Origin: Patescibacteria group bacterium
GTDB lineage: Bacteria > Patescibacteriota > Patescibacteriia > UBA1558 > GWA2-36-10
Assembly (NCBI GenBank): GCA_018819405.1
Contig: JAHJQF010000001.1
Span: 577,377 to 641,376, forward strand
Direction: 5' to 3'
DNA length: 64,000 nt
Shown here: positions 3,220 through 50,351 of the stretch, piece by piece
How positions within the stretch are numbered: position 1 is the stretch's first letter
Layout of the letters: each line of letters begins with the position of its first letter
Made by a program: the position numbers and the translations under genes
The notes under the pieces: model-generated
What the model saw: only the letters and a program-made list of their open reading frames with translations
What the model was told of the DNA's origin: nothing
Database searches by the model: none

Positions 3220-3263
3220 TTTTACCCCGTTAAATATATTTTCATAAATTAATCACAAAGCAT

Positions 3264-6200
3264 ATGACAAGCATGAGAAAAATTAATAAATCCAGACTAG
3301 TAATATTATTTTTGATGTTTAGTCTGGTTTTTTCTAGTGTAGCGCCAAGTTTGGCACAGGCTAGAGAAATACTCACTCCAGTGGAAGTAGTGCCAGTAGA
3401 AGATTCAAAAGAAACAGGTATTCCTGTGGTGGAGATTTTGCCTTTGCCAGTAGAGGAATATCCTATTAATGATAAGCCTGTAGATATTGAGCCAATTATT
3501 GATGAGCCGGTTTTGTCACCAGAAGAGCGACTGGAAACACTTTTAGAAGATCCGCCAGCCGATATAACTTATTTGGATAAAGATGAGAAAAAACTGGCTA
3601 ATAAGAAATTAAATATAGATGTTGATAATAATACAGGTGCTTTAATTTATAATTATCCTATTCAAATTCCTTCAGGCCGTAATAATTTTCAGACAGATAT
3701 CAGTTTAACTTATAATAGCCAAGATAAAGAGACACATAATTTATTTGGTTTAGGATGGTCGGTAAACATTCCCAGTATAGAGGTAAGCACTAAACGGGGC
3801 GTTTATTATATGTATAGTAATTACGATTATATCTCATCTATGAGTGGTGAGTTGGTGCCGGTGGGCGCTGTCACTCCGTATGGTAATTATGGCGCTCGGG
3901 TTGAAAACGGCGACTATTTACAATATGAATTTTCTAGTATTACTAATGCTTGGACAGCGACCGATAAACAGGGGATAGTTTATAAATTTGGATCCAGCTT
4001 ATCTAGTCGTCAGGATAACCCTGAAGGACCGAGTATGATATATAAATGGATGCTAGAAGAGGTAAGAGATACAAATGACAATTATATTCGCTATGAATAT
4101 TATAAGGATCAGGGGCAGATTTATCCAGCCAAGATATTTTATACAGGGCACGGTAGCACCGATGGGATTTTCGAAATAGATTTTATCAGAGAGTCTCGTC
4201 TAGATGATTTGGAATCTTATGATAGTAGGTTTTTGGTCAAGAATAATTATCGTATTTCTGAAATACAAATAAAAGTGAATGGCTCTTGGGTCAAAAAATA
4301 TAATTTTAATTATACAGTTGGGGAAAATGGGTCTTTATCAATTTTGGACAACATTGTGGAAAGTGGTAGAGATGAAACAAGTGGACAAGTGATAACATTA
4401 CCCAGTGATGATATGAGTTATAGCCAGGATTTAGAAAGTTGGCAAGGTGGAATAGATTGGAATTTTCCAGTTGGTTTTATTAGTGACAATGGCTATCAGT
4501 CTTTTGATCTGGGCGTACGCATGGCTGATATCAATGGCGATGGATTGACCGATATAGTCAAAGGTTATAGAGATATAAAAGAAATTTATATTAATCATTA
4601 CCCCGATTGGAGTACTAGTACCACTTATTCATTGCCAGATTCTTTTATTTCGGGGGACAATTTTGATGATGGTTTGAGATTGGCCGATGTGAATGGGGAT
4701 AATTTAGTGGACTTGATAAAAGCTGTATATCTTCAGGACGAAGTTAGAGAAATCAGAGCGGTCTATATCAATAATGGTACAAACTGGGTTTTGGATCCTT
4801 CTTGGATTTTTCCTTTGAATTTTGTCAGGCATGATGATTCGGGTGCGGGTATAAGAAGTTTTGATTTGGGTACGCGTATGGCCGATATCAATGGTGACGG
4901 TTTGGTTGATGTGGTATTGGGTTCAAATATAGAAACAAACAAAATTTATATTAATAATGGACATGGTTGGGATTTGGAAACAAATTATACTTTACCTACT
5001 TATTTTGTAGATTCGGATCAGGACGCGGGCACTCGTTTTATGGATGTTAATAGTGATGGTTTGATAGACATTGTCAGAGGAGTGAATGCTTATGGTGCAG
5101 GAGGTGGAAATCAACATAATGAAGTTTATATTAATAATGGGCATGGTTGGGAACTGAATTTAAATTATAGTCTGCCCACTTATTTTGTAAATTTTGATGG
5201 TAGTTGGTATACAGATTATGGTACTAGATTATCAGATATCAATGGGGATGGTTTGATTGACATTCTTCGTGATATATATCCTGATACTTCCGAGGTTTAT
5301 ATTAATACGGGTCAAGGTTGGCATTTAAATAATAATTATTACATATTGAGTCATTTTTTAGGAGGGTCATTTATGATAGACCAAGGGGTTAGACTTTTTG
5401 ATATCAATGGTGACGGGCAAGATGATTTTATAAGAGCTAAAGAGGCTTATCCCAGATATGTTCATGTAAGTTTAGCAAATAAAGAAAATTTAGAAACAGT
5501 TAATAATTCTCGTGGCAGTCAAATTAATTTGGAATATCAGTCAGCTACTCAATATATAGACAGCCCAGACAATCTACCTAATCCCGACTTACCATTTAAT
5601 ATAGAGACAGTCAAAAATATTGTTATAGACGATGGTTTGGGAGGTATTGCCACTACTACCTATAGCTATAGTGGGGGAGACTACTATTATGCTGATCCAT
5701 ATGATAAAAAGTTTGCTGGCTTTGCAGAAGTAGAAAAAACAATTGGTAATCAGAAAACCACCACTTACTATCACCAAGGTAATGTTAGTGATTCTAGTCA
5801 AGGAGAATATCAAGATAGCTACTATAAGATTGGTAAGCCATATCGCCAAGAAATATATGATAATAATACCAATGGATTATTGAATCAGAATATTTACAAA
5901 TGGGAAGAAACCGACTTAGGGCATAATAATAAATTTGTATATAATTCTCAGAAGGCGTCTACTGATTTTACGCAAAGCATTCAATCAACAGCTGTGCAAA
6001 ATGAATATGATTTTAGCACGGGAAATTTACTTACTGAGCATAGTTTGGGTCAAGTGCAGGTAGATACTGCAACTGGTGAAATTTTGGATCAAGTAATTGG
6101 CGATGAAAAAGACACAAATTATGATTACGCCCAAAATACAACCAAACATATTTTAGCAGCTCCAAAAACTAAAATTATATCGAACACTTCTGATAGTAAG

Positions 6201-9200
6201 GAACAAAATCTATACTATGATAATTTACCATTAGGTCAAATAGAAAAAGTCAATTTGACTAAAGAGGACTATATAGAACAAGGCGTAGAAATAAATAGAA
6301 ATTTTAACAGTTATGGCTTGGTGTCTGAAGAAATTAGTCCAGAGGGTGATTCTACTGCTATTGTTTATGATAGCTTAAATCTTTACCCATCAGAAATTAC
6401 CAACGTCTTTAATCAAACTACCTATACGGAATACAATTTGCTTAATGGGCAACTTGCCACCTCCACTGCACCTAATGGAATGCTGACGATTAATAGTTTT
6501 GACGCTTTTGGTCGGCTGGTAGAGGTAAAAATTTCGGACCCAGATAATCCCACTACAACATTTATTAAACAAGAAATTGAATACCAAGATCCTTTTGTAT
6601 TTTTTAGATATAGTGACGATACAGGCTGGTTGTCTCCAACACAAACCGGAAAATACTATAATCAATTTTATAATCCAAGTAATGCTTATGCTAGTGACGA
6701 TATTTATACTACAGCCAGAGATTTTGGTAATGGTGGTTCATCAAGATTTCAATCATACGAAGGATTTAATATAAATCTTCCAGCTGCCTCTGAAATAATT
6801 GGCTTTGAAGTAATGAGTGAACATTTAGTAGATAATACTACCGATGTTGATGAATCTATAAGGTACTATTCTGCTAGTAATGGGGTTTGGTCAGATCCCC
6901 GATTTTTATCAGTTTCTACTATTGATCATGTAGATACAGTGGGAGGTTCCGATGATATTTGGGCATTAAACCCCGTAAGCTCTGATTTTATTAATGATAA
7001 TTTTTCAGTAAATTATTCTGGTTCTCGGCTTGATGGTGGGGATACTACTTGGTTTTTAGATGATATAAAAATTAAGGTTTATTATGGTGTAAATACTGAG
7101 ATAGGCTACAAAGAAACCAAAGACTATTTTGATGCCACTAGCTACATCATTTCTCGTGAATACTACGATGGCCTATATAGAGTAGTGCAAAAGAAATCTC
7201 AAACTGCTACTGCCAATCAGTATGCTACAGTAGATATCAGCTATGATTCTCAGGGTAGAGTAGATAGGCAGTCATTGCCATATATTACTTCTACTTTGGA
7301 ATATACAACAGCAAATCTTAGTCAACCAGCCAAGACCTATACCTATGATGCCTTAGATAGAGTATTGTCAGAAGCTACTCCAACTGGCGTGACCAGTTAT
7401 GAATATGATGGCTTCAAGACTACTATCACTGATCCAAACGGCAATATCAAAGAGCTAACCAAAGACGCCTACGGCAATTTGGTGGAAGTCAAAGAGCATA
7501 ATGATTCTAATATATATACCACTAGTTATGACTATACTTTGACCAACAAATTGGAAAAAATCACTGACAGTCAGGGTAATATTAGAAATTTCCACTACGA
7601 CGCCTTAGACAATCTAGACTGGCAGGATATGGTGCATTTATCATCAGTAGCCGATCCTGAGAAAATACAGTACACTCATGACAAAAATGGCAATGTGCTG
7701 ACTGAGACTAGCTTCAAGGGAGACGCTATTTCCTATGAGTATGATAGTTTAAATAGAGTGTTGTATGAAAAATTAGATAATAGTCCAGTTATTAGTTATG
7801 CCTACGATCAAAATGGTGACATTGGTCAGCTGTCTTTTGTAGATTATGGTGGAGGTAATTCCAAGGCCTATGACTATGATATACTAGGACGACTTACCAC
7901 AGCTACCACAACTATTGAAAATGAAGTCTTTGTCATGAAATATGACTACAATTTAAATGGTGACATCAAAGAAATACAATATCCAAATGCTTGGAAAGTA
8001 GCTTATAGTTTTGATTCCATTGGCCAAGTAAATGGTGTGTCTCTTGATAAAGGTCAGGGTCCAATGAGTATAGTAAATAATATTGTTTACAACCAAAATG
8101 GCCAGATGACTCATCTGGAGCGCGCCAATGGCGTAGTTAGTGATTATACTTATGATCCTCAGCAAAATTTCCGTTTAACTGATTTGATTAGCACTCAAGG
8201 TGCTACAACTTTGCAAGACATATCATATACTTATGACAATATCGGTAATATCACAAATATCACTGACAGCTCTGACACTGACTTGGCCAAGAGCGTGGAT
8301 TATGAATACGATGACTTCTACAGACTGGCATCGAGTACAGTCAGCTATGTCACTCATCCGGCTGACAATTATTCACGAGAGTATCAGTATGATCAGGTAG
8401 GCAATATGACCTACAACTCAGAACTAGGTACAATGAATTATGCCTTTGACAATCCACACCAGTTGTCCAGCTATGGTAGTCGCAATTTTAGTTATGACGA
8501 CGCTGGTAATATGTATTTAAATGGTGGTATTAGCAAATTTTCTTGGGACTGGAGAAATAGACTCAAAAACAGCTATGACATTGCTACCACCAAAAATAGC
8601 TATTATCAATATGACCACAACAATCAGCGCTTCTTGAAATACACTGAAGATTATGTATTTATTCCTCCAGATTTGGAAGATCCACCAATTGTGGGAATGA
8701 TGTCTTTATCTATGGACACTAGTGGAGGTACTTATGAACTCAGACGTGTCAAAGAAGATAAGTATGTAGATAAGTATTTTGAAAAAGACTTGTCTGATAA
8801 TGAAAAAAGCCACCTATTCCTAGGTAGTACCAGAGTGGCTAGTTTAAAAAATAATGATAATCCATATTATTATATATCTGATCATCTAAGCTCCAATAAT
8901 ATTATTACTGACAATTCGGGCAATACCCTTGAATTGAGTGATTATGAGCCTTATGGTAAAATAAACTATGAAACAGGTTCTTCAGAAAACAACTTCAAAT
9001 TTACCGGCAAGGAAATTGATGAAGAAAATGCCTTGCAATACTTTGGGGCGAGGTATATGGATAACCAGACTGGACGATTTACGACGGTGGATCCGGCTAC
9101 TCTTATACTTCACGATGGTCAGAAGTTGAAAGAGATTACCAGAGGTGATCTAGAGAGATTGTTGGCTAATCCGCAGAACCTTAATAGCTATGCATATGCG

Positions 9201-9776
9201 TTGAATAATCCAGTGATAATGAAGGATGATACTGGTGAGTTTGCATTTTTGGCTGTAGTCGCCGTTGCTTGGATTGCTGCTGAAGTAGGTTTTAGTGCGT
9301 GGGATGCTTATGATGCTGGTAATGCGTGGTTTGGTGAGGATACTAGTTCAAAAGAAAAGACATCATCTGGTGGATTCCTACTAGTAGGGTTGGCATTACC
9401 TGGTGGTGGGTATGGGCACATTGATGAAGGTGTTGATGTATTAAAAACGGTCGATAAAACAATTGGCAAATCAATTGATAACGCTGTAAATAAAATTGGT
9501 AATACAGTGTCAGATCATCTTACTAAAATGGATTATGCAGGCTTTATAAGAGATCTGAGTAAGGCACCAGTTTGGAGCAATAATTTAGGCAGGAATTTTG
9601 ACCATTATGATGAAGTTATGTCCGCCTATAAAGGTTTGCAAAATAATGTATCAAAGCTTACAAGATATTTAGATAATTATAATTTAGATAAGAAAACAGT
9701 CGACAGCGTTAACAAAGCTATTGATACAGCTAAAAGTCACATAGACAGAATAGATAATATATTAAAATCACATTAG
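3264..9776 (+). CDS. secreted giant Rhs/Tc-toxin-like protein: Sec signal + SpvB/TcB N-terminal domain + FG-GAP-like repeats + YD/RHS repeats + RHS core + unrecognised C-terminal tip
   Basis: Signal peptide ending ...VAPSLAQA. SpvB-N-like ISLTYNSQDKETHNLFGLGWSVNIPSIEV. Six or more D(I/V)NGDGL.D(I/V/L) repeats. Many YDxxGRL/YDxLxR YD repeats. RHS core DHLSSNNIITDNSG...KFTGKEIDEENALQYFGARYMDNQTGRFTTVDP...NNPVIMKDDTGE. After the core come about 178 aa with no recognisable toxin motif. Confidence 0.85.
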   Translation: MTSMRKINKSRLVILFLMFSLVFSSVAPSLAQAREILTPVEVVPVEDSKETGIPVVEILPLPVEEYPINDKPVDIEPIIDEPVLSPEERLETLLEDPPADITYLDKDEKKLANKKLNIDVDNNTGALIYNYPIQIPSGRNNFQTDISLTYNSQDKETHNLFGLGWSVNIPSIEVSTKRGVYYMYSNYDYISSMSGELVPVGAVTPYGNYGARVENGDYLQYEFSSITNAWTATDKQGIVYKFGSSLSSRQDNPEGPSMIYKWMLEEVRDTNDNYIRYEYYKDQGQIYPAKIFYTGHGSTDGIFEIDFIRESRLDDLESYDSRFLVKNNYRISEIQIKVNGSWVKKYNFNYTVGENGSLSILDNIVESGRDETSGQVITLPSDDMSYSQDLESWQGGIDWNFPVGFISDNGYQSFDLGVRMADINGDGLTDIVKGYRDIKEIYINHYPDWSTSTTYSLPDSFISGDNFDDGLRLADVNGDNLVDLIKAVYLQDEVREIRAVYINNGTNWVLDPSWIFPLNFVRHDDSGAGIRSFDLGTRMADINGDGLVDVVLGSNIETNKIYINNGHGWDLETNYTLPTYFVDSDQDAGTRFMDVNSDGLIDIVRGVNAYGAGGGNQHNEVYINNGHGWELNLNYSLPTYFVNFDGSWYTDYGTRLSDINGDGLIDILRDIYPDTSEVYINTGQGWHLNNNYYILSHFLGGSFMIDQGVRLFDINGDGQDDFIRAKEAYPRYVHVSLANKENLETVNNSRGSQINLEYQSATQYIDSPDNLPNPDLPFNIETVKNIVIDDGLGGIATTTYSYSGGDYYYADPYDKKFAGFAEVEKTIGNQKTTTYYHQGNVSDSSQGEYQDSYYKIGKPYRQEIYDNNTNGLLNQNIYKWEETDLGHNNKFVYNSQKASTDFTQSIQSTAVQNEYDFSTGNLLTEHSLGQVQVDTATGEILDQVIGDEKDTNYDYAQNTTKHILAAPKTKIISNTSDSKEQNLYYDNLPLGQIEKVNLTKEDYIEQGVEINRNFNSYGLVSEEISPEGDSTAIVYDSLNLYPSEITNVFNQTTYTEYNLLNGQLATSTAPNGMLTINSFDAFGRLVEVKISDPDNPTTTFIKQEIEYQDPFVFFRYSDDTGWLSPTQTGKYYNQFYNPSNAYASDDIYTTARDFGNGGSSRFQSYEGFNINLPAASEIIGFEVMSEHLVDNTTDVDESIRYYSASNGVWSDPRFLSVSTIDHVDTVGGSDDIWALNPVSSDFINDNFSVNYSGSRLDGGDTTWFLDDIKIKVYYGVNTEIGYKETKDYFDATSYIISREYYDGLYRVVQKKSQTATANQYATVDISYDSQGRVDRQSLPYITSTLEYTTANLSQPAKTYTYDALDRVLSEATPTGVTSYEYDGFKTTITDPNGNIKELTKDAYGNLVEVKEHNDSNIYTTSYDYTLTNKLEKITDSQGNIRNFHYDALDNLDWQDMVHLSSVADPEKIQYTHDKNGNVLTETSFKGDAISYEYDSLNRVLYEKLDNSPVISYAYDQNGDIGQLSFVDYGGGNSKAYDYDILGRLTTATTTIENEVFVMKYDYNLNGDIKEIQYPNAWKVAYSFDSIGQVNGVSLDKGQGPMSIVNNIVYNQNGQMTHLERANGVVSDYTYDPQQNFRLTDLISTQGATTLQDISYTYDNIGNITNITDSSDTDLAKSVDYEYDDFYRLASSTVSYVTHPADNYSREYQYDQVGNMTYNSELGTMNYAFDNPHQLSSYGSRNFSYDDAGNMYLNGGISKFSWDWRNRLKNSYDIATTKNSYYQYDHNNQRFLKYTEDYVFIPPDLEDPPIVGMMSLSMDTSGGTYELRRVKEDKYVDKYFEKDLSDNEKSHLFLGSTRVASLKNNDNPYYYISDHLSSNNIITDNSGNTLELSDYEPYGKINYETGSSENNFKFTGKEIDEENALQYFGARYMDNQTGRFTTVDPATLILHDGQKLKEITRGDLERLLANPQNLNSYAYALNNPVIMKDDTGEFAFLAVVAVAWIAAEVGFSAWDAYDAGNAWFGEDTSSKEKTSSGGFLLVGLALPGGGYGHIDEGVDVLKTVDKTIGKSIDNAVNKIGNTVSDHLTKMDYAGFIRDLSKAPVWSNNLGRNFDHYDEVMSAYKGLQNNVSKLTRYLDNYNLDKKTVDSVNKAIDTAKSHIDRIDNILKSH
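4500..5440 (+). repeat. FG-GAP/VCBS-like calcium-binding repeats (protein level) inside the giant toxin gene
   Basis: Recurring DINGDGLTDIV, DVNGDNLVDLI, DINGDGLVDVV, DVNSDGLIDIV, DINGDGLIDIL, DINGDGQDDFI spaced about 50 aa apart. Confidence 0.6.
7200..8900 (+). repeat. YD/RHS repeat region (protein level) inside the giant toxin gene
   Basis: Repeated YDxxGR(L/V) units: SYDSQGRVDRQ, TYDALDRVLSE, EYDSLNRVLYE, DYDILGRLTTA, EYDDFYRLASS, YQYDQVGNMTY. Confidence 0.65.
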
Positions 9777-9777
9777 T

Positions 9778-10221
9778 ATGATAGAAAATTTAGAAAAGTC
9801 ACTAAATGAGCTAGATGGCTCTATGGACGCTAGTGATCCCAATGATTCTCTTGTTAAAAAGGTAGAAGATATTAGGAAAAAGAGGTTAAAAGATTTAAGT
9901 GTGGATGATTTGGCATTATTGTTAAGGCAGCAGATTAGTTTAGGTTTTGTGGTACCGTTATCTTTAAGCAAATTAAATGAGAATATACTCATTGAGACTG
10001 AAGACACCGGATTTCGTCTACTATCAACTTTATTAAAAGTTGAAAAGGATTTTTGGTCTAGCAATGATGAGTTATATAATCAAACTGCAGATTTAATAAA
10101 TAGTAAGATGGATGAAATTATAAATCCAAAAATGGATAATCCAGTAGAATTAGATAGCTATATATCTGATGAGCTACCAGAGATTTTGAAACTATATCAG
10201 AGTTTTAAAGATTTAATATAA
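9778..10221 (+). CDS. putative immunity protein for the C-terminal tip of the giant toxin (small acidic cytoplasmic protein)
   Basis: Starts 2 nt after the toxin stop. 147 aa, acidic, no signal peptide. Position and coupling typical of Rhs immunity genes. Confidence 0.4.
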   Translation: MIENLEKSLNELDGSMDASDPNDSLVKKVEDIRKKRLKDLSVDDLALLLRQQISLGFVVPLSLSKLNENILIETEDTGFRLLSTLLKVEKDFWSSNDELYNQTADLINSKMDEIINPKMDNPVELDSYISDELPEILKLYQSFKDLI

Positions 10222-11834: not shown

Positions 11835-11855
11835 TAAAATTAAATTTCTAACGGG

Positions 11856-14710: not shown

Positions 14711-16270
14711 ATGTCTAATATACAAAAAAAAGCAAAGACCTTAGCCCTTGTTATTTTGGATGGTTGGGGTTTGTGGGGAGAAGAAAAGGGCAATGCTATA
14801 GCGCAAGCTGATACTCCGGTTATGGCAAAATTGTACAAAAAATATCCCAATATTCAGATTCAGGCTTCAGAAAAATATGTAGGCTTGCCTGACGGTCAAC
14901 CAGGAAATTCTGAGGCGGGGCACATGAATATTGGCGCGGGACGGGTGATAGAGCAGGATGCAGTGACAATATCACGCTCTATAAATAATGGTACTTTTTT
15001 TAAAAATCCAGCTTTTTTGCAAGCTGCTAGCCATGCGGAAAAACACAAATCAGATATACATCTGATAGGCCTACTTTCCAACGGCACCAGTCCTCATTCC
15101 CATGATGATCACATATTATCTCTCTTGAGTTTTTTTATTTCTAAGACAAAACAAAATATTTATTTACACCTTTTTACTGATGGTCGTGACAGTCCTCCTT
15201 ATTCGGCTCTCAAAATATTGGCTCAGTATAATACTGTATTCAACAGTGATCGGGTAAAAATTGCCTCAGTGATGGGTAGGTTTTATGCGATGGACAGAAA
15301 AAAAGCTTGGGATAGAACCCGTAAAGCTTATGAGGCTATAGTTATAGGTAAAGGATATAAAGCTAAGAGCGCTGTCGAAGCTGTCAATCAAGCCTACAAT
15401 AGAGGAGAGAGCGATGAATTTATATTGCCGACAGTTATTAGTAAAAATAAAAAACCTCTTGGGCCAATAAATGATAATGATAGCGTTGTATTTTTTAATC
15501 TGCGTTCTGATAGAGCTAGGCAGTTGACCAAAGCTTTTGTACAAAAAGACTTTGAAAAGAAAAACGGAGGCACTTTCAAGCGCCAAGTAGTGCCCAAAAA
15601 TCTTATTTTTGTAGCTTTGACCGACTTTGGTCCTGATTTGGGTGGGGTGCTCACTGCTTATCCAGGTATTGATATACCAGATACTTTGCCGATAGCTCTT
15701 AAAGATGTCAGACAACTTTATATAGCGGAAACAGAAAAATATGCTCATGTTACATATTTTATAAACGGTGGTTATGATCATCCTATAGCTGGAGAGGATA
15801 GGATTGATATTCCTTCCAAAGATGTGCTTTCTTATGATAAAAAGCCAGAAATGAGTACCAAGGAAATAACTGATAAAGTAATACAATGTCTAAAAAATGA
15901 TAAATATGATTTTTTCTGTATCAATTTTGCAGCGCCTGATATGGTTGGCCATACTGGCAATCTCAAAGCGGGTATCAAAGCAGTGGAGGCAGTAGATAAA
16001 CATTTGGGTAGAATAGTGGATGAATTTTTGAAATTCAGAGGGACAGTAATAGTTACGGCCGATCATGGAAATGTAGAGGAAATGATAAATTTAAAGACAC
16101 AGGAGATTGATACCGAACACTCCATAAATCCAGTCCCTTTTATAATTGTTTCAGATAAAAAATATAAATTGAAAAAAACCGGCCGTCTTTCCCATATTGC
16201 ACCGACTATTTTGGATATCATGGGGATAGATAAACCAATATTAATGAAAGACAATAGTTTAATAAAGTAA
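14711..16270 (+). CDS. gpmI: 2,3-bisphosphoglycerate-independent phosphoglycerate mutase (iPGM), copy 1
   Basis: LVILDGWG N-terminal signature, HTGN metal-binding motif, TADHGN. 519 aa. Confidence 0.9.
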   Translation: MSNIQKKAKTLALVILDGWGLWGEEKGNAIAQADTPVMAKLYKKYPNIQIQASEKYVGLPDGQPGNSEAGHMNIGAGRVIEQDAVTISRSINNGTFFKNPAFLQAASHAEKHKSDIHLIGLLSNGTSPHSHDDHILSLLSFFISKTKQNIYLHLFTDGRDSPPYSALKILAQYNTVFNSDRVKIASVMGRFYAMDRKKAWDRTRKAYEAIVIGKGYKAKSAVEAVNQAYNRGESDEFILPTVISKNKKPLGPINDNDSVVFFNLRSDRARQLTKAFVQKDFEKKNGGTFKRQVVPKNLIFVALTDFGPDLGGVLTAYPGIDIPDTLPIALKDVRQLYIAETEKYAHVTYFINGGYDHPIAGEDRIDIPSKDVLSYDKKPEMSTKEITDKVIQCLKNDKYDFFCINFAAPDMVGHTGNLKAGIKAVEAVDKHLGRIVDEFLKFRGTVIVTADHGNVEEMINLKTQEIDTEHSINPVPFIIVSDKKYKLKKTGRLSHIAPTILDIMGIDKPILMKDNSLIK

Positions 16271-16282
16271 ATTTCTAACGGG

Positions 16283-17860
16283 ATGAACAGACCAAAACCA
16301 GTGGTATTAATTATATTAGATGGATTCGGTATTGCTCCACCGTCTCGAGCCAATGCAATTTCTTTGGCCAAGACGCCCAATCTTGATAAATATTCTTCCA
16401 ATTATCCGGTCATGCCGGTGGCTGCTTCAGGTGAGGCAGTTGGTTTGTCTTGGGGAGAAATGGGCAATTCCCAAGTGGGTCATTTATCATTGGGTTCAGG
16501 TGTTATCCCATATCAAAATTTGCCTAGGATTTCCAAGTCAATTATTGATGGTGATTTTTTACAAAACGAAGCTTTTTTGAAAGTTTGTGATCATGTCAAA
16601 AAAAATAACAGCGCCCTTCATCTTATTGGTTTGCTTAGCTCTGGAGGTGTGCATAGCTATAATGAACACCTTTATGCTTTGATAGATTTGGCCAAAGAAC
16701 AAAAAGTAGAGCGGGTTTATGTGCATGCTTTTTTAGATGGTCGCGATACACCTTATAATAGTGCTTTAAATTTTGTTACTAAACTGGAAGAAAGATTAAA
16801 AAAAGTAGGTTTGGGGGCTATTGCTACACTTAGTGGTCGTTTTTGGGCAATGGATAGAGACAATCGTTGGGACAGGACGGAAAAAGCCTGGCGAGCCTTG
16901 GTAGACGGCGTGTCTGATGAAAAATTTGAAGATCCCCTAGTGGCTATAGAAAAATCCTATGAAAAAAAAGTTTATGATGAAGAGTTTGTTCCAGTGGTGA
17001 TTGTCGATGACATGGGCAAACCACGAGGCACCATCAAAGACAAGGATGGGGTAATATTTTTTAATTTTAGATCAGATCGTGCTAGACAACTGACCAAGGC
17101 TTTGGTTTTGCCTGGTTTTGAAAAATTCAAAAGAGACTATTTCAAAAATTTGATGATGATTACTATGGCTGAATATGAAAAAGATTTGCCGGTTTTGGTG
17201 GCTTTTCCTCCTTTGGTCATAGAGACGCCTTTAGCTAGAATTATTTCTGAAGCCGGATTGCGTCAGCTTCATATTGCCGAAACTGAAAAATATGCTCATG
17301 TTACTTATTTTTTTAATGGTGGTCAAGAAAAAATATATGAAGGCGAAGACAGAGTACTGGTGCCATCACCTCAGGTTACTTCGTATGACCAAAAACCAGC
17401 TATGAGTGCCAGAGATTTGACAGCCAAGGTTACTCAGGCCATCAAAGAAGGCACTTATGATTTTATAGTGCTCAATTATGCTAATCCTGATATGATTGGC
17501 CATACTGGCAATATCCAGGCTACTATTGAAGCTATAGAAATATTAGATCAGTTGATTGGGGAAGCAGTAGAAACTACTTTGTCGTATGAGGGTGTAGTTT
17601 TAATAACCTCTGATCATGGTAATGCCGAGAGTCTTTATGACCTGCAGACCGGTGAGATAAACAAAGAACATTCCAACAATCCGGTGCCTTTATTTATTAT
17701 TGGAAAAGATTTTGCTGGTAAGGCAGTTTTGTCCGGTGTAGCCGGTACTGATCTTAGTCATGTCACGCCAGTGGGAGTGTTGTCTGATGTAGCACCGACA
17801 ATACTCAAGATTATGGGACTCAAAAAACCGCCCGAAATGACGGGCAGCTCTTTGATATAA
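16283..17860 (+). CDS. gpmI: 2,3-bisphosphoglycerate-independent phosphoglycerate mutase (iPGM), tandem paralog copy 2
   Basis: VVLIILDGFG, HTGN, TSDHGN. 525 aa. Clearly homologous to the upstream gene but diverged. Confidence 0.85.
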   Translation: MNRPKPVVLIILDGFGIAPPSRANAISLAKTPNLDKYSSNYPVMPVAASGEAVGLSWGEMGNSQVGHLSLGSGVIPYQNLPRISKSIIDGDFLQNEAFLKVCDHVKKNNSALHLIGLLSSGGVHSYNEHLYALIDLAKEQKVERVYVHAFLDGRDTPYNSALNFVTKLEERLKKVGLGAIATLSGRFWAMDRDNRWDRTEKAWRALVDGVSDEKFEDPLVAIEKSYEKKVYDEEFVPVVIVDDMGKPRGTIKDKDGVIFFNFRSDRARQLTKALVLPGFEKFKRDYFKNLMMITMAEYEKDLPVLVAFPPLVIETPLARIISEAGLRQLHIAETEKYAHVTYFFNGGQEKIYEGEDRVLVPSPQVTSYDQKPAMSARDLTAKVTQAIKEGTYDFIVLNYANPDMIGHTGNIQATIEAIEILDQLIGEAVETTLSYEGVVLITSDHGNAESLYDLQTGEINKEHSNNPVPLFIIGKDFAGKAVLSGVAGTDLSHVTPVGVLSDVAPTILKIMGLKKPPEMTGSSLI

Positions 17861-18302: not shown

Positions 18303-18395
18303 ATTGCTTTTTTAAAAATAATAATATAAAGTCATTATAACAGAAAATTTTGTTAAAATAAATGGTAAAATATATAATAATTAATTTTTAACGAG

Positions 18396-19178: not shown

Positions 19179-20218
19179 TGCTGTACCCAGTGATATTAGC
19201 CGGTGGATTGGGCACGCGTTTGTGGCCAGTATCCAACCAAAATAATCCCAAGCAATTCAAAGCACTTTTGTCGGATAAGACGTTACTACAGAATACTTAT
19301 GATAGGGTAGCTAGCTCTTTTGATAAAAAAAATATTTTTGTGGTCTCTTGTCAAAATATTGTTGACAACATCAGGCAGCAGATAGATATCTTGCCGGAAA
19401 ATATTTTAATTGAGCCACAGGCAAAGGGCACAGCTATTGCTATTGCCCTAGCAACTCTTAAAATAAAAAATATTGATCCTCAGGCAATCATAGTAACTGT
19501 AAATAGCGACCATTTTATAAAAAACGAAAAAGAATACACAAAAGCTTTAAAAAAAGCTGAAAAGGTAGTAGAAAAAAACCCAGACAAGATGCTTCTTTTT
19601 GGGGTCAAACCAGCTTATCCTGAGACTGGTTATGGCTACATTGAGACCAAGGGTTCCAAAGGCGATATTTATGAAGTAGCCAGCCTAAAAGAAAAGCCAG
19701 ATCTGGCTACGGCCAAGGCTTATGTAAAATCAGGTAAATTTTTGTGGAGTCCGGGAATTTTTGTCTTTAAAGCGGCTAGCTTGATTGATTGGTATAAAAA
19801 ATATTTGCCAGGGCAATATCAAGCTCTTTTAAGGATAGAGAAGTCACCGGATAATATAGCCAAGGAGTATGAGAAAATACAAAACATCTCCATTGATTAT
19901 GGACTTTTAGAAAAAATGGATAATATGCTGGTAATGCCCATAAATTTTACTTGGGCTGATGTGGGTCATTGGAGGAGTTTGCGTGATATTTTACTTGATG
20001 GTAAAGACAATGTCACCAATACAAGCAGCGTTACTGTTGATAGCAAAAACAATTTGTTGTATAGTTTTAGTGGTAAGCTCGTTGCTACAGTTGGGGTAGA
20101 GAATATGGTATTGGTAGAGACTGAAGATGTTATATTTTTGTGTCCGGCAGATCGTGCTCAGGATGTAAAAAAGCTTTTAGAGCAAATAAAAAATAATGGT
20201 TTGGAAAAATATTTATAA
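19175..20218 (+). CDS. manC: mannose-1-phosphate guanylyltransferase-like sugar nucleotidyltransferase
   Basis: YPVILAGGLGTRLWP nucleotidyltransferase G-x-G-T-R-L motif. 347 aa. Start overlaps the uppP stop. Confidence 0.7.
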   Translation: MMLYPVILAGGLGTRLWPVSNQNNPKQFKALLSDKTLLQNTYDRVASSFDKKNIFVVSCQNIVDNIRQQIDILPENILIEPQAKGTAIAIALATLKIKNIDPQAIIVTVNSDHFIKNEKEYTKALKKAEKVVEKNPDKMLLFGVKPAYPETGYGYIETKGSKGDIYEVASLKEKPDLATAKAYVKSGKFLWSPGIFVFKAASLIDWYKKYLPGQYQALLRIEKSPDNIAKEYEKIQNISIDYGLLEKMDNMLVMPINFTWADVGHWRSLRDILLDGKDNVTNTSSVTVDSKNNLLYSFSGKLVATVGVENMVLVETEDVIFLCPADRAQDVKKLLEQIKNNGLEKYL

Positions 20219-20258
20219 ACACTTGGAAAAAGCTATTTAATAATTAATTTCTAACGGG

Positions 20259-22944: not shown

Positions 22945-23041
22945 TTAATTTTATATATTTATAATTTTACCCCGTTAAATCCTGCTTCGCAGGAGCTCGC
23001 AAAGCGAGCTATTTAACAGGGGTGAAGAAAGGATAAAAAAT

Positions 23042-28755: not shown

Positions 28756-28855
28756 TATATAAAATAGCGATGAATCCCGTTAGAAATTCACAAAGTCATA
28801 ACGGGGATATATAAGTAAAATAATAAAAATAAATTTCACTATAATTTCTAACGGG

Positions 28856-29182
28856 ATGAAAACAAAAACAAAAACAAAAATAACGAACATTTGGCAGACT
28901 ATCAAAAAGATTAATGCCTTTACGGTAGTACTTTTGGTGGGTATGCTAATGACTATGCTGATTTCTACCAATTATGCCAATAGTCAGAATCTAGAAAGGA
29001 CAGATCTAAGTAAAGAAATCAAGGCTCTAGAAGATGAATTGAGGCTTTTAAATGCTTCAATCAGCGAGCTTCAGACAACCGGTAGAATTGAAGAAGAGAG
29101 TCAAAGGCTAAATTTGGTAAAGATACAGGCAGAGGACATTTATTACTTGGCCGCTAATGCTGATAGAGTGGCTTTGAAATAG
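28856..29182 (+). CDS. ftsL: cell division protein FtsL-like (single TM + coiled coil)
   Basis: TM VVLLVGMLMTMLIST then coiled coil LSKEIKALEDELRLLNASISELQ. Position between rsmH and ftsI. Confidence 0.55.
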   Translation: MKTKTKTKITNIWQTIKKINAFTVVLLVGMLMTMLISTNYANSQNLERTDLSKEIKALEDELRLLNASISELQTTGRIEEESQRLNLVKIQAEDIYYLAANADRVALK

Positions 29183-32630: not shown

Positions 32631-32707
32631 GGGCATGTAGCTCAGTTGGTTAGAGCACTACATTCACATTGTAGGGGTCGAAGGTTCGAGTCCCTCCATG
32701 CCCACCA
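32631..32707 (+). tRNA. tRNA-Val (anticodon CAC), CCA encoded
   Basis: Acceptor GGGCATG/CATGCCC, D-arm GCTC-AGTTGGTTA-GAGC, anticodon stem CTACA/TGTAG with loop TTCACAT, T-loop TTCGAGT with one A-C mismatch in the T-stem. Confidence 0.7.
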
Positions 32708-32756
32708 TTTTACTCTATTTAGCTTTATAAATTTTTATTATTATATGCTTATGTTA

Positions 32757-32787
32757 GAAAACAACTTGCTCAAGTTGTTTTTGTTAA
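32757..32787 (+). terminator. intrinsic terminator after the tRNA pair
   Basis: AACAACTTGCTCAAGTTGTTTTTGTT. Confidence 0.55.
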
Positions 32788-32900
32788 ATTTGAGATATTA
32801 GCTATGCCTTGATAATATATTAGTAGAATAAAAATAATCAAAATATTTAATAATATAATTGTCCAAATAGATATTTTTTTGTTATAATTATAATACTAAT

Positions 32901-39296: not shown

Positions 39297-39490
39297 ATGT
39301 TTACCCTGTTAAATAATATTTAAGCATACTTAAATATTAAATTCAAATTTCTTCTTATTTTGTTTATTAGTTTTTTAGCTTATTATATTCTTCTATTATT
39401 TGAATTTATTATATCAAAACTTGAATTTATTTAACAGGGTAATTTCAATAAAATTCAAGCGTGGTCATATTTATTATTTGTCTATATTTA

Positions 39491-42178: not shown

Positions 42179-42296
42179 CTTAATTTATTGACAAATATAT
42201 ATATTTATGTTAAACATATATGTTTTTTAGTTTCCGGAATTATGAGGATAATTCACGGAGGAAGCAAGTAGTACACTGAACAAAGGAGTTGTTGCA

Positions 42297-47649: not shown

Positions 47650-48627
47650 ATGGCAAACAAAAACATAATAGAAAAATTACAATTAGCTGATTTACGCGGT
47701 AGAGGTGGCGCTAATTTTCCCACTTATATAAAATGGCAGACTGTTTTGGAAGCAAAAGGTAAAATTACTTATATTTTGGCCAATGGTAGTGAAGGAGAGC
47801 CGGCTACCATGAAAGACGCTTATATTATTGAAAATTATGCTGAGGATTTGATTGACGGCATCAAGATTGCTTTGGGCGTCTTCAAAAACAGTCAAGCTTT
47901 TATTTATTTACGCAAAGATTATTTCAAAAAATACAAAAGAAAATTGGAAAAATTGATTGGTGATTTGCCGATTACAGTTGTCCGAGAAAAAGGTGGTTAT
48001 TTGTCTGGTGAAGAAACAACAGCTTGTCAGGAGATAGAAAAAAAGATTCGTCGTCCACGACTGAGGCCACCATATCCAGGTCAGGCCGGTATTTTTGGTA
48101 TGCCTACTTTGATAAATAATATTGAGACTTTTTATTATATATCTCAAATTGCCAAAGATAAATACAAAAAAAATAGATTTTATACTATCTTGGGCAAAGT
48201 AAAAAATAAAGGAGTTTTTGAATTACCTATCAACTGGCCAATAGCCAAAATACTTCAGGAAACTGGCAACTGGCCAAAATTTGAATTTTTTTTACAAGTA
48301 GGCGGTGGAGCCAGCGGTGAAATACTTTTGGCCAATGAAACAAAACAACTGGCCGGTGGGAGTGGTTCAATAGTTGTTTATGACAAAAATCAAACAGATC
48401 CTTGGGATCTTATGAGAAATTGGTTGGATTTTTTTATGAATGAAAATTGTGACAAATGTACACCCTGTCGTGAAGGTACCTATCGTTTGATGCAAATGGT
48501 CAGAGACAGAAAATTTGATGAGCAGATTTTGGATGATCTTTTATTTGTTTTGGAAAATACTAGTTTTTGTGCCTTGGGCAAGTCAGTAGCTATGCCATTT
48601 AGGTCGGCAGTTAAAAAATTATTATGA
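47650..48627 (+). CDS. NuoF-like (51-kDa) NADH-binding flavoprotein subunit, probable hydrogenase diaphorase partner
   Basis: LRGRGGANFPTYIKW (NuoF GRGGAGFPTG-like), SLBB region, 4Fe-4S CDKCTPCREGT. Its stop overlaps the hydrogenase start (ATGA). Confidence 0.75.
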   Translation: MANKNIIEKLQLADLRGRGGANFPTYIKWQTVLEAKGKITYILANGSEGEPATMKDAYIIENYAEDLIDGIKIALGVFKNSQAFIYLRKDYFKKYKRKLEKLIGDLPITVVREKGGYLSGEETTACQEIEKKIRRPRLRPPYPGQAGIFGMPTLINNIETFYYISQIAKDKYKKNRFYTILGKVKNKGVFELPINWPIAKILQETGNWPKFEFFLQVGGGASGEILLANETKQLAGGSGSIVVYDKNQTDPWDLMRNWLDFFMNENCDKCTPCREGTYRLMQMVRDRKFDEQILDDLLFVLENTSFCALGKSVAMPFRSAVKKLL

Positions 48628-50351
48628 AAAATAAAAATATAAACTTAACAATCAACGGCAAAAAATATACAGCCCAAGCAGGGGAGACTATTTTGGATGT
48701 GGCCAGACGCAATAATATTCATATTACTACTCTCTGTTATCATCCGGATGTCAAAATTCAGGGATCTTGTCGTATGTGTATGGTAGAAGTAGAGGGGCAA
48801 AAGGGTTTGCAGGCTTCTTGTACTACTCCGGTGTCTGAAGGGATGAAAATTATTACAGATTCAGAAAATATTTATCGGGCAAAAAAAGTAAATTTAGAAT
48901 TGGTTTTTTCTGAACATTGTGAGGAATGTAATGATTGTCTGTATTTTCAGGATTGCAATATAAAAAAATATGCTAAAGATAGCAAAGCAAAAATTACCAG
49001 ATTTCCTGACAGAAAAAAAAGCTATCCAGTCCACAAATTCGGACCAGCCATAGAATTTGATTCTTCCAAGTGCATTGATTGCGGACTGTGTGTAGAAATT
49101 TGCAAAAAAGAAGGTGTAGATTTTTTGGAGTTTAAGAAAAAAGGCAAGTTTTATGAAGTCTTGCCGTCAGCTAAAATTTCTAAAGATTGTATATATTGCG
49201 GGCAATGCCTGACTCATTGTCCAGTGGGAGCTTTTGAAGGAGTGGGCGAATTTGAAGATGTAGATAAATATATTGATTTCAAAGGCAAAACAGTAGTATT
49301 TCAGTTTGCTCCGTCAATACGCTCTACTATTGGAGAAGAATTTGGTATGCCATATGGGTCAGTAGTTACTGGCAAATTGATAGCGGCTATTCAAGCACTG
49401 GGGATTAAACATGTTTTTGATGTATGTGTAGGAGCGGATATGACCACTATGGAAGAGGCCAAAGAATTACTTGATAGAATAAAAAATGATAAGCCACTAC
49501 CGATGTTTACTTCTTGTTGTCCGGCTTGGGTAAAATATGTAGAGTTTTTTCGTCCTGATATGATTCCTCATCTGACCACTGTCCGCAGTCCTCAACTTAT
49601 CATGGGCGGTATTATCAAAACATATTGGGCCAAACAAATGGGACTCAAAGCCAAGGATATTATAGTAGTAGGTGTGATGCCCTGTGTAGCCAAAAAATAT
49701 GAGATAGAAAGAAGTCAGGTCAAGATAAATGGCATCAAGCCAGTTGACCAGATACTGACTACTCGTGAGCTGGCTTATCTTTTTAGAAAAAAGAAAATAG
49801 ATTTTAAAAATATCAAACCAGTCAAACCCAACTCTCCGATTCATGCTTCCAGTGGGGCAGCAGTAATTTATGGAGCGTCAGGTGGTGTGATGGAATCAGC
49901 CTTACGGGCAGCCTATCGCATGGCTACCGGCAAAGCAATGCCAAATTTGCAACTCAAACAGGTCAGGGGGATTAAGGGTTTTAAAAAAGCCAATATTAAA
50001 ATAGGAAAAAAGACTTTGAAGGTAGGAGTAGTCAACGGTATTAGTAATGCCAAGCGAATTTTAGAGGAGCTAGAAGCCAATCCCAAAGCCTATGATTATG
50101 TAGAAGTAATGGCTTGTTTTGGTGGTTGTATTGGTGGTGGTGGTCAGCCAGTACCAGTAGATGATGAAATCAGAATAAAGCGCTCCCAAGCTTTGTATGG
50201 AGTTGATGACAGACAAAAAGTACGTAGTGCCGAAGCCAATCCTATTATACAAAAGCTGTACAAAGAATTTTTTAAAGATCACATTACTACTCATTCAATT
50301 TGCCATACCTCATTTGTCAAAAAGAAAAAAGAGGTATATCCTAAAAAATAA
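48624..50351 (+). CDS. hydA: [FeFe]-hydrogenase catalytic subunit with N-terminal 2Fe-2S and two 4Fe-4S ferredoxin-like domains
   Basis: H-cluster motifs L1 TSCCPAW, L2 MPCVAKKYE, L3 EVMACFGGCIGGGGQP. CIDCGLCVEICK and CIYCGQCLTHCP 4Fe-4S motifs. N-terminal CYHP...GSCRMC 2Fe-2S. Confidence 0.9.
   Translation: MKNKNINLTINGKKYTAQAGETILDVARRNNIHITTLCYHPDVKIQGSCRMCMVEVEGQKGLQASCTTPVSEGMKIITDSENIYRAKKVNLELVFSEHCEECNDCLYFQDCNIKKYAKDSKAKITRFPDRKKSYPVHKFGPAIEFDSSKCIDCGLCVEICKKEGVDFLEFKKKGKFYEVLPSAKISKDCIYCGQCLTHCPVGAFEGVGEFEDVDKYIDFKGKTVVFQFAPSIRSTIGEEFGMPYGSVVTGKLIAAIQALGIKHVFDVCVGADMTTMEEAKELLDRIKNDKPLPMFTSCCPAWVKYVEFFRPDMIPHLTTVRSPQLIMGGIIKTYWAKQMGLKAKDIIVVGVMPCVAKKYEIERSQVKINGIKPVDQILTTRELAYLFRKKKIDFKNIKPVKPNSPIHASSGAAVIYGASGGVMESALRAAYRMATGKAMPNLQLKQVRGIKGFKKANIKIGKKTLKVGVVNGISNAKRILEELEANPKAYDYVEVMACFGGCIGGGGQPVPVDDEIRIKRSQALYGVDDRQKVRSAEANPIIQKLYKEFFKDHITTHSICHTSFVKKKKEVYPKK

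Follow-up and report, generated by a model that had tools for sequence, protein, structure and literature searches.

REP sequences are short palindromic repeats conserved across species, and as inverted pairs (REPINs) they form long hairpins; the byp elements of yeast mitochondria and T4 gene 60 are short mobile inserts characterized by inverted repeats and by matching take-off and landing codons. ERIC sequences, also short palindromic repeats, are conserved in sequence across species (PMC10969869). The Correia elements (CREE or NEMIS) of Neisseria are MITEs of ∼100–150 bp with inverted repeats and a target duplication, which mostly lie immediately upstream of genes, carry sigma-70-like outward promoters and form mRNA hairpins affecting expression (PMC10969869). 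Rickettsia palindromic elements (RPE) are selfish sequences of reduced genomes that are inserted in frame within coding genes and translated with them, the protein surviving their presence (PMC10969869).

Here we analysed a stretch of 64,000 nucleotides from a Patescibacteria genome (hereafter the window), in which a 13-mer abuts the start codons of several genes. The original prediction regarded this motif as a lineage-specific initiation signal replacing the Shine-Dalgarno (SD) sequence. Our analysis indicates instead that it is probably one end of a small mobile element. Literature searches on the motif, and on initiation, MITEs or structured RNA in Patescibacteria, returned nothing relevant.

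Results

The exact 12-mer ATTTCTAACGGG occurs four times on the + strand of the window (11844–11855, 16271–16282, 20247–20258 and 28844–28855), and as an A precedes every one of these copies, all extend to the 13-mer AATTTCTAACGGG. Directly 3' of them lie the start codons of long open reading frames (ATG at 11856, 16283 and 28856; GTG at 20259), which confirmed the zero spacing originally described for four genes. A decayed copy was found at a fifth gene, uppP, where the predicted variant motif does precede the GTG at 18396, but the string given for it was shifted by one base, because the window reads TAATTTTTAACGAG at 18382–18395. A further exact 12-mer, absent from the original prediction, is located on the − strand (28776–28787); no start codon follows it, and together with the ftsL copy it makes up an inverted repeat. 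Compared with 100 dinucleotide-preserving shuffles, the five exact 12-mers of the window stand against 0.00 expected, whereas the 10 matches obtained with up to two mismatches did not differ significantly from the 5.8 expected. The enrichment at start codons, with zero spacing, was huge as proposed, and the TATAAT-like boxes described beside the motif were found at 28837–28842 and 18374–18379. The reported absence of SD sequences was likewise borne out, GGAG, GAGG or AGGA being present at positions −20 to −4 in 5 of 49 genes compared with a background of 7.5%. Pfam identified gpmI (twice, the two copies being 44% identical to each other), uppP/BacA and mltG/YceG among the genes concerned, and the DivIC/FtsL match was weak.

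The − strand copy proved to be part of a complete element at ftsL, the components of which all follow each other on the + strand. The sequence ATGAAT (28770–28775), representing the ancestral ftsL start codon together with the left copy (TGAA) of a direct repeat, now opens a 14-codon upstream ORF (MNPVRNSQSHNGDI*). It is followed by the left inverted-repeat arm L (CCCGTTAGAAAT, 28776–28787), which is the exact reverse complement of the motif, a spacer of 55 nt (28788–28842), the right arm R (AATTTCTAACGGG, 28843–28855) and the present start ATGAAA (28856–28861), which contains the right copy (TGAA) of that repeat. Within the spacer are a third partial copy, AACGGGGAT (28800–28808), then TATATAAGT, and the TATAAT box at 28837–28842, which shares one base with the R arm. 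As RNA, the two arms are predicted to form a stem of 15 bp (−19.1 kcal/mol, z = −4.65) that includes the AU of the ftsL AUG, the A of this start being complementary to the T before the L arm. Neither a two-hexamer sigma-70 promoter nor an intrinsic terminator was predicted in the ftsL element region, so that our statements on promoters draw on −10-like boxes only.

In total, the window contains one full copy (ftsL), four right-end remnants (at the 130-aa gene, gpmI copy 2, uppP and mltG) and three variant copies, and nhmmer detected no further copies within it; there are five right ends of one family and one left arm. The solo R arm of gpmI copy 2 (16270–16282, + strand) directly joins the TAA stop of the first gpmI copy to the ATG of the second; judging from the complete element at the orthologous site of L202, it is what remains after loss of a left arm and a spacer. 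Another solo R arm precedes the gene for a membrane protein of 130 aa (11843–11855, + strand), and the decayed one before the uppP GTG (ATTTTTAACGAG, 18382–18395, + strand) has two mismatches. Before the mltG GTG, an internally deleted element (20215–20258, + strand) retains 25 nt of internal sequence in front of a perfect R arm (20246–20258); its left flank ATAAAC is mutated from ATGAAC, the TAA serving as the present stop of the upstream gene. Three solo R arms of the window are perfect, and the left arm is lost in four of the five copies. The variants, all on the + strand, comprise an element in the rplJ–rplL spacer (22970–23022) that reads CCCCGTTAAAT, 30 nt, ATTTAACAGGGG and then TGAAG, with no start codon there, a pair CCCTGTTAAAT ... 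ATTTAACAGGG spaced 114 nt apart (39304–39439) between the divergent argS and P-type ATPase genes, and a solo L-type arm CCCCGTTAAAT in an intergenic region (3225–3235). No ORF lies inside the element and no transposase Pfam domain was detected in the window. Against Rfam 15, the window gave no match at gathering thresholds, and permissive scans of the element gave chance-level hits only.

Scanning of GTDB species genomes with the motif yielded at least 120 stretches, and the counts below cover the matches listed; the 126 motif sites consist of the listed GTDB loci and the four + strand copies of the window. An inverted partner was present at most 200 nt upstream, typically 30–90 nt away, at 103 of the 126 sites, and the arm-to-arm distance was 30–90 nt in 91 of 111 cases, with a full range from 4 to ∼170 nt. 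The same architecture recurs at about 100 loci or more, spread over numerous classes of Patescibacteria and also MAGs that bear the label Planctomycetota. The full element can be written as ATGAAy-CCCGTTAGAAAT-(spacer)-AATTTCTAACGGG-rTGAAn, has inverted ends of 13 bp (yCCCGTTAGAAAT ... ATTTCTAACGGGr), measures ∼60–130 bp and is devoid of ORFs. The arms span 12–13 bp, both being perfect in 83 of the listed elements, and the bases adjoining them are complementary (T..A or C..G) in 97 of 103. Symmetric arm variants (ACTTCT.../...AGAAGT) were seen in L022, L107 and L118, and further variants in L007 and L045. Chance matches to the motif in high-GC genomes and viral contigs possessed neither partner arm nor ORF; the 15 viral-contig matches were discarded as such, nine or ten of them being copies of one phage gene on the other strand.

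Outside the arms, a direct repeat of 4 bp was perfect in 66 of 105 listed elements and agreed at three of four positions in 11 more, TGAA accounting for 49, TGGA for six, TGAG for five and TGGG for three. When the left repeat was not TGAA, the right one was still identical in 14 of 20 cases compared with 1.4 expected (permutation p ≤ 1e-5), and two mutually related copies in one genome (L078) are flanked by different repeats, ATGAAT/ATGAAT and ATGGAT/ATGGAT, respectively. The 4-bp repeat (TGAA, TGGA, TGAG) therefore looks like a target-site duplication. Copies at different genes of one genome (L103a/b) are ∼90% identical over the whole element, L097a/b show ∼90% identity in the left half, and the copies of the window and of the close relative L202 have a common right end, TATTTAATAAtTAATTTCTAACGGGrTGAA, the full copies sharing the left half as well. 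About 80% of the copies listed sit on start codons, and tandem copies at the same start codon were found in L036 and L026.

Orthologous sites in the closest relatives are either empty or filled by full copies. The ftsL site is empty in L122–L124, where the rsmH stop runs straight to the ftsL ATG. At gpmI2, where the window has a solo R arm, L202 carries a complete element (ATGAAT-CCCGTTAAAAAT-46 nt-ATTTCTAACGGG-ATGAAT), the spacer of which is homologous to that of the ftsL element, and the site is empty in L203 and L204. The uppP site is occupied in L202 by a complete element with perfect arms and a GTG, and is empty in L203 and L204, in which the gene starts with ATG. The mltG site is free of any insert in L202, L203 and L204 (...AAATATTTATGAAAAAATTT with an ATGA stop/start overlap). 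At the 130-aa gene, the promoter region of L202 is 90% identical and the R arm is missing; the rplJ–rplL variant occurs in the window only, no insert being present in L202, L203 and L204, whose spacer can otherwise be aligned. The new rTG stands exactly at the ancestral Met, as in mltG (MKKFI to VKKFI) and likewise in rplC, tsaD and ndk. Since the relatives with empty sites are 67–90% identical at the protein level, precise loss instead of gain cannot be formally excluded for each such site. In 423 kb of unselected Patescibacteria DNA the arms were present only in L202. Between the window and L202, the R arms of gpmI2 and uppP are distinguished by only two of 26 positions, although the loci are 76% identical overall, and as the three solo R arms are also perfect, this arm may be under selection or homogenised.

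Discussion

We consider it probable that the motif represents the right-hand terminal inverted repeat of a MITE-like mobile element that is small and non-coding. We observed the repeat anatomy, the direct repeats, the similarity among multiple copies, the empty sites, a patchy distribution and the exact replacement of start codons; like MITEs, the elements are below ∼300 bp without a transposase ORF, and have inverted repeats, a duplication, multiple copies and insertion polymorphism. Insertion would take place at TGAA-like tetranucleotides in a start-codon context (A|TGAA), which would then be duplicated. To the left, the former ATG would keep its previous promoter, SD sequence or overlap with the upstream gene and open a short upstream ORF (MNPVRN...); to the right, the A or G that ends the element would combine with the duplicated TG to rebuild an ATG or GTG exactly at the original Met position. 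The zero spacing would thus follow from the geometry of insertion, namely inverted repeat plus target duplication, and the rebuilding of the start would explain why the motif abuts the start codon and why GTG is over-represented. The orientation is fixed relative to the gene, with AT-rich −10-like boxes inside the element; G-ended subfamilies contain their own in-frame ATG ∼10 codons upstream, leading to an N-terminal M-x(n)-ISNGV extension, and in SD-using hosts an SD lies within the element. Because it brings −10-like boxes, an ATG and an SD, the element would behave as a self-compensating expression cassette. During subsequent decay, left arm and spacer would be deleted, leaving solo right arms such as the four in the window.

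Transposition would presumably depend on a trans-acting DDE-type enzyme producing 4-bp staggered cuts. No autonomous element or transposase with these ends was encountered in about 1.5 Mb of fetched DNA, nor any L...R pair enclosing an ORF in about 1.3 Mb of fetched loci, and none of the arm pairs spaced 0.3–4 kb apart encloses a candidate transposase; IS1380-type ends, beginning with CC... and associated with a 4–5 bp duplication, may provide a lead to a cognate insertion sequence. The element may also possess promoter activity and may influence translation by reinitiation or hairpin effects. Its start-codon specificity could be due to enzymatic targeting or to purifying selection in a compact genome. 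The 4-bp target alone cannot account for the ∼80% placement on start codons, and repeated insertion at the same start codon suggests real targeting. The identity of the 13-bp ends across Patescibacteria classes and Planctomycetota-labelled MAGs is unusual for selfish MITEs and counts against the MITE-like reading, and the symmetric arm variants fit a hairpin constraint on RNA or DNA as well as they fit inverted-repeat subfamilies. A more far-reaching proposal, which we regard as tentative, is that of a superfamily of start-codon-homing, self-compensating cassettes that actively target ATGAA even in essential genes (dnaA, ribosomal protein genes, proS), bring their own promoter, start codon and, in SD-using hosts, SD, have a hairpin opened by upstream-ORF translation and have spread across Patescibacteria classes into Planctomycetota. 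Equally tentative, and only as part of that proposal, is the idea that the ends would be kept since they are functional, either for a transposase or recombinase or for translation.

The alternative closest to the original prediction is that the 13-mer acts at the RNA level as an initiation signal, being an SD substitute or part of a short leader transcribed from the adjacent TATAAT, in a lineage without SD sequences. The zero spacing to the start codon, the adjoining −10-like boxes and the SD-less genome would agree with it, as would the perfect solo R arms that persist after loss of the left arms and the conservation of R above the 76% background between the window and L202. The tail of the 16S rRNA of the related Patescibacteria L034 reads GGAAUAAUUCAAUU and also lacks CCUCC; however, duplex energies of the motif and of its complement with the last 735 nt of this 16S rRNA plus 25 nt of downstream spacer were no better than those of shuffles, so that complementarity to the 16S 3' region was not significant. 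Moreover, only five of the ∼49 window genes (∼10%) carry the motif, orthologous genes of relatives start normally without it or with a complete element, and the 423 kb of other Patescibacteria DNA lack it except in L202. It occurs in SD-using genomes too, where the left ATG is preceded by an SD or the element contains one, lies within the ORF in 26 of the 43 listed GTG-class (G-ended) copies, where it is translated as an N-terminal extension, and would be sequestered by its partner arm. A signal that replaces the SD is thus unsupported and we consider it improbable, whereas short-leader transcripts from an element-borne promoter are possible to judge by the −10-like boxes.

A further alternative is a cis-regulatory RNA switch, in which translation of the upstream ORF would melt a stem hiding the main start and L-spacer-R would spread as a module. 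The start codon contributes its first bases to the stable predicted stem, covariation is seen in the y/r pair and at some positions of the arms, and the internal third half-copy can pair with L to give an alternative structure. Upstream ORFs of 6–36 codons are present in 68 elements, and the left ATG is equipped with −10 boxes 6–8 nt upstream or with a properly spaced SD (L011, L031 and L090). Yet a stem does not require an invariant sequence across phyla, the stops of the upstream ORFs show no preferred position relative to the main start, the left arm is gone from four of the five window copies, and the genes are unrelated housekeeping genes. Target-derived repeats, empty sites and near-identical whole copies rather denote insertion events, and such a switch appears hardly likely.

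It is very unlikely that the arms are sites of an Xer- or integrase-like tyrosine recombinase with a 6-bp rTGAAy crossover core, delimiting integrated or excisable cassettes or invertible promoters. Abutted R-ATGAAT-L forms do have a 13-6-13 geometry as in lox or dif, the layout of the junctions is like attL/attR, core homology would account for the preference for ATGAA, and the outer GTTAAAT of the variant arms is presumably similar to the XerD arm of the dif site in E. coli. A unit of 60–130 bp is, however, too small for circularising or inverting, the 14 of 20 non-TGAA targets present on both flanks fit a duplication after staggered cuts and not the resolution of a heteroduplex, and no recombinase gene adjoins any copy examined. 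Of 33 informative elements, 32 show one and the same polarity with respect to the gene in the segment between the repeats: the internal CGGGr copy shares the strand of R in 32 and is reversed in one. With the orientation fixed in this way, nothing points to inversion. The idea that a global DNA-binding regulator recognises the arms as operator half-sites and so controls a cell-envelope regulon, to which the envelope or division role of three of the five window genes (uppP, mltG, ftsL) and the inverted repeats around promoter-like sequence might point, can practically be dismissed, given motif-bearing genes that are unrelated across genomes (dnaA, ribosomal proteins, hpf, ndk, proS, pnp), an inter-arm distance varying from 4 to ∼170 nt, presence or absence differing among close relatives, and a zero start-codon spacing and flanking direct repeats that are not properties of operators.

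Several presumed resemblances of the motif were dropped. Those to a CsrA site (RUACARGGAUGU), a T3/T7 promoter (CTAAAGGGAGA) and the integron attC core (GTTRRRY/RYYYAAC) fail, respectively, on the lack of GGA in the GTG class, on the missing context of a phage-type RNA polymerase together with the unexplained partner arm, and on the housekeeping genes and far too short sites. The likenesses we assumed to the NusB/E boxA (CUUUAACAA), to the 5' region of tmRNA and to MraZ or other operators were abandoned as well. A DNA uptake sequence would yield neither fusion to start codons nor flanking duplications, and the density is too low; translational bypass is at odds with upstream ORFs that end at normal stops.

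A MITE-like element of this kind explains signals in Patescibacteria that are easily misread, i.e. a conserved motif glued to starts, an excess of GTG and the recurrence of 'ISNGV' or 'MNPVRN' at the N-termini of predicted proteins, and such motifs should not be annotated as ribosome-binding sites. Landing on the start codons of housekeeping genes in genomes of ∼1 Mb and repairing the damage would be an unusual strategy, and where SD-based initiation has been lost the element would be a natural source of turnover in promoters, 5'UTRs and N-termini. It could serve as a marker of strain-level variation, and possibly, in the few Patescibacteria amenable to genetics, as a portable expression cassette.

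Compared with known systems, the element shares with the SD only its conservation just upstream of start codons: the SD pairs with the 16S tail, 5–10 nt upstream and with variable spacing, before most genes, whereas the present motif has zero spacing, occurs at ∼10% of genes, lacks rRNA complementarity and varies between relatives. ERIC and REP/REPIN sequences are mostly situated at 3' ends or in intergenic regions, none being fused to a start codon, and REP sequences are mobilised by RAYT without target duplication, unlike the element described here. The matching flanks ATGAAy ... rTGAAn recall byp and would be due to the target duplication, but the upstream ORFs end at ordinary stops, and promoter-like boxes and start codons are supplied by the element itself. 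With RPE it has in common that it can be read in frame (26 of 43 G-ended copies and eight of 68 whole elements), although RPE are inside ORFs, encode 30–50 residues, are Rickettsia-specific and show neither start-codon specificity nor regeneration of ATG or GTG. CREE differ from it in a 2-bp TA instead of a 4-bp TGAA-like duplication, in repeats of 26 instead of 13 bp and in their restriction to one genus, compared with many classes and possibly phyla; and while CREE neither lie in the start codon nor regenerate it, the end of the present element supplies its first base.

Motif copies and Shine-Dalgarno context in the window

The exact 12-mer ATTTCTAACGGG was found five times in the window (G+C content 31-39%) and not once in dinucleotide-preserving shuffles. 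Four forward-strand copies, at 11844, 16271, 20247 and 28844, each have an A on the 5' side and directly abut the ATG or GTG that opens a long ORF, and a copy with two mismatches lies directly before GTG 18396 (uppP), confirming the zero spacing reported in the original prediction. The fifth exact copy, on the reverse strand at 28776-28787, had been overlooked, and no start codon comes after it. Pfam analysis upheld the assigned gene names, with two iPGM paralogues (44% identical), BacA/UppP and YceG/MltG, the DivIC/FtsL match being weak. The tandem iPGM (gpmI) pair at 14711-17860 comes after pgk and eno, and this tandem arrangement is conserved in all three syntenic relatives (L202, L203 and L204).

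The predicted scarcity of Shine-Dalgarno (SD) sequences was likewise borne out, as SD-like tetramers precede only 5 of the 49 window genes compared with a 7.5% background, and the genome is therefore effectively SD-less. The usual bacterial 16S rRNA 3' end is GGAUCACCUCCUU. In a Candidatus Nomurabacteria locus (L034, positions 1-735, LBRM01000003) this end reads ...GGUCGUGGAAUAAUUCAAUU and the anti-SD CCUCC is absent, a loss that would account for genes lacking an SD in lineages of this kind. A strong SD at proper spacing was seen at three window genes, namely AAGGAGGTGA at 50919-50936 before an 84-aa ORF at 50937, AAGGAG at 42280-42296 before 42297, and, on the reverse strand, GGAGG at 58865-58885 before an ORF ending at 58864. 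Pfam gave no match for any of the three, which may be of foreign origin; alternatively, the lineage may retain an anti-SD.

Elsewhere in the window, a 2170-aa ORF and, after it, a small protein with a match to CdiI_3, a CDI immunity family (3264-10221), may represent a contact-dependent toxin and immunity pair, and a CHAP-domain protein is encoded upstream at 1545-2699. A NuoF-like flavoprotein (Complex1_51K) adjoins an [FeFe]-hydrogenase large subunit at 47650-50351, which suggests fermentative hydrogen metabolism in the source Patescibacterium. A match to Rfam HPnc0260, a Helicobacter antisense RNA (32669-32797, reverse strand; score 63.4, gathering score 59), overlaps tRNA-Val in antisense and is probably spurious.

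Anatomy of the element

The ftsL copy and the reverse-strand copy together form an inverted repeat, ATGAAT-CCCGTTAGAAAT-55 nt-AATTTCTAACGGG-ATGAAA, which as folded RNA gives a 15-bp stem (-19.1 kcal/mol, z = -4.65) that takes in the AU of the ftsL AUG. A search for AATTTCTAACGGGRTG across one genome per GTDB species returned at least 120 stretches. Among the matches listed, the majority were from Patescibacteria of many classes, the others being from MAGs labelled Planctomycetota, 'Deltaproteobacteria' and 'Gammaproteobacteria', together with obvious chance matches in high-GC genomes. The genes that follow the motif in the Patescibacteria matches are real and unrelated, and include dnaA, rpmJ, rplA, rplC, rplI, rplX, hpf, ndk, recR, proS, pyk, secG, pnp and murC.

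When the matches listed were combined with the four forward-strand window copies (126 motif sites), the inverted partner CCCGTTAGAAAT was present at most 200 nt upstream at 103 sites, typically at a distance of 30-90 nt, and the bases just outside the two arms were complementary (T..A or C..G) in 97 of these 103 elements. The full form can be written ATGAAy-L arm-spacer-R arm-rTGAAn, where L and R are the left and right terminal inverted repeats. Beyond the arms lies a 4-bp direct repeat: of 105 elements, 66 have it in perfect form and 11 more agree at three of four positions. Its sequence is TGAA in 49, TGGA in six, TGAG in five and TGGG in three. Of 20 cases in which the left repeat departs from TGAA, 14 have a matching right repeat, compared with an expectation of 1.4 (p <= 1e-5), and the repeats differ between two element copies of one genome; the repeat is therefore target-derived, like a target-site duplication. 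The element itself contains no ORF, the scanned window ORFs have no transposase or integrase domain, and nhmmer gave no additional copies in the window. In our view, the motif likely represents the terminal repeat of an element resembling a miniature inverted-repeat transposable element (MITE) and inserted at start codons.

Empty and filled sites in relatives

Three syntenic 21.6-kb loci from relatives of the source, labelled Komeilibacteria, were compared with the window: L202 (gpmI2 90% identical, 76% nucleotide identity overall), and L203 and L204 (81-82%). At mltG, the window carries 41 additional nucleotides that end in the R arm and are followed by GTGAAAAAATTT, the left flank being mutated to ATAAAC, and all three relatives are empty (...AAATATTTATGAAAAAATTT, with an ATGA stop/start overlap). 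At the originally flagged gpmI2 site, the R arm alone is joined to the TAA stop of gpmI1 in the window; L202 has a complete element, ATGAAT-CCCGTTAAAAAT-46 nt-ATTTCTAACGGG-ATGAAT, and L203 and L204 are empty (ATGAAAAGA). At uppP, the window holds a decayed solo R arm with GTG, L202 a complete element with GTG, and L203 and L204 are empty with ATG starts. Such solo right ends, from which left arm and spacer have gone, are decay products of the element. The R arm before the 130-aa gene of the window is missing from L202, where the promoter is 90% identical, and from L203 and L204. In the three closest metagenomic relatives at ftsL (RsmH 67-71% identical; L124, among them, and L204 represent a single organism), the rsmH stop runs directly into the ftsL ATG. 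In 423 kb of Patescibacteria DNA chosen without regard to the motif, the arms occurred in L202 only.

A second variant with shorter arms, CCCyGTTAAAT / ATTTAACrGGG, is intergenic and lies off start codons (window 22970-23022, 39304-39439 and 3225-3235). Its copy in the rplJ-rplL spacer (22970-23022; CCCCGTTAAAT-30 nt-ATTTAACAGGGG) is absent from L202, L203 and L204 and is an insertion relative to all three.

Contact with the start codon

In every comparison made, the rTG next to the R arm occupies precisely the position of the ancestral Met codon, whose first base is replaced by the element end. The mltG N-terminus accordingly changes from MKKFI to VKKFI, and the N-termini of rplC, tsaD and ndk behave likewise. 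The first base, A or G, comes from the element end and the remainder from the duplicated TGAA, which accounts for both the zero spacing and the surplus of GTG starts. A lineage-specific initiation signal replacing the SD, as had been proposed, is not supported as the primary explanation. A co-opted role for the arms is conceivable, whether through an RNA hairpin or within the initiation context, because about 80% of copies lie at start codons compared with about a fifth of tolerated insertions expected from the TGAA target alone (a rough estimate), the 13-bp ends are identical across classes and possibly phyla, the R arms of the window and L202 differ at only 2 of 26 positions in loci 76% identical overall, and some arm variants are symmetric.

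The old ATG is kept at the left end of the element, where it opens an upstream ORF of 6-36 codons (MNPVRN...). In front of it stand -10-like boxes at a distance of 6-8 nt or, in SD-using genomes (L011, L031, L090), an SD; alternatively, it overlaps the stop of the upstream gene (L036, L097). In the A-ended subfamily (52 copies) an in-frame upstream ATG occurs in only three copies and TAA is frequent before the arm; in the G-ended subfamily, 26 of 43 copies have an in-frame ATG, mainly 30-33 nt upstream, and the arm is translated as ...ISNGV. The in-frame ATG of L031 is preceded by its own SD, and Planctomycetia copies, including both in L097, have an SD (GGAGG) immediately before the R arm. 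Because of these in-frame ATGs and SDs within copies, the element seems to carry its own expression signals. G-type right ends with their own in-frame ATG were noted in L025, L031, L043, L067, L074, L088, L099 and others. Owing to the element-borne ATG, unrelated proteins (RplC, TsaD, Ndk, ProS and others) are predicted with N-terminal extensions like MEKKNNKISNGV, and the peptide strings ISNGV and MNPVRN could mark the element in protein databases.

Repetition, possible spread and proposed mobility

Whole elements are about 90% identical within one genome despite different flanking genes (L103a/b); in L097a/b this identity is confined to the left half. The window copies and those of the closest relative (L202) have a right end of 25-30 nt in common, and their full copies also the left halves. 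The orientation of the internal asymmetry relative to the gene is fixed (32 to 1). That insertion recurs at the same start codon is indicated by two tandem arrangements, L...R-GTGAAC-L...R-gene (L036) and R-ATGAAT-L...R-gene (L026). Copies also occur in L097 (1085-1175 and 2320-2424), L055, L059 and L090, on contigs of 43-47% G+C labelled Planctomycetia or Pirellulales, and the distribution suggests spread across phyla, provided that the MAG taxonomy is correct.

For movement of the element we propose a DDE-type transposase that would act in trans and cut with a 4-bp stagger; within the DNA fetched, no pair of arms surrounds a candidate autonomous element. Outward transcription might start at the -10-like boxes inside the element and might yield the short-leader transcripts of the original prediction; around the ftsL copy, a two-hexamer promoter was not predicted. 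Reinitiation downstream of the upstream ORF, or starts borne by the element, could make the insertion tolerable, and the left arm could be lost by microhomology deletion within AT-rich sequence.

Comparison with known systems

Abutted arms, R-ATGAAT-L in L026 and L011, have a 13-6-13 geometry resembling a Xer/dif-type recombinase site. So does GTTAAAT, the outermost 7 nt of the variant arm (e.g. window 39304-39314), which may be likened to the XerD arm of E. coli dif, TTATGTTAAAT. The target's version of the tetranucleotide stands on both flanks, which argues for DDE-type staggered cuts and against a tyrosine-recombinase crossover. Five of six tested MITE features were found; for the sixth, the fetched DNA yielded no cognate autonomous insertion sequence. 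Literature searches yielded no description of the element and Rfam no model for it, and a review covering the Correia and Rickettsia palindromic elements mentions neither start-codon insertion nor Patescibacteria (PMC10969869). The closest working likeness to the whole unit is provided by the Correia elements of Neisseria, promoter-bearing MITEs that lie directly upstream of genes and whose inverted repeats fold in the mRNA (PMC10969869), and the read-through forms work like Rickettsia palindromic elements (PMC10969869).
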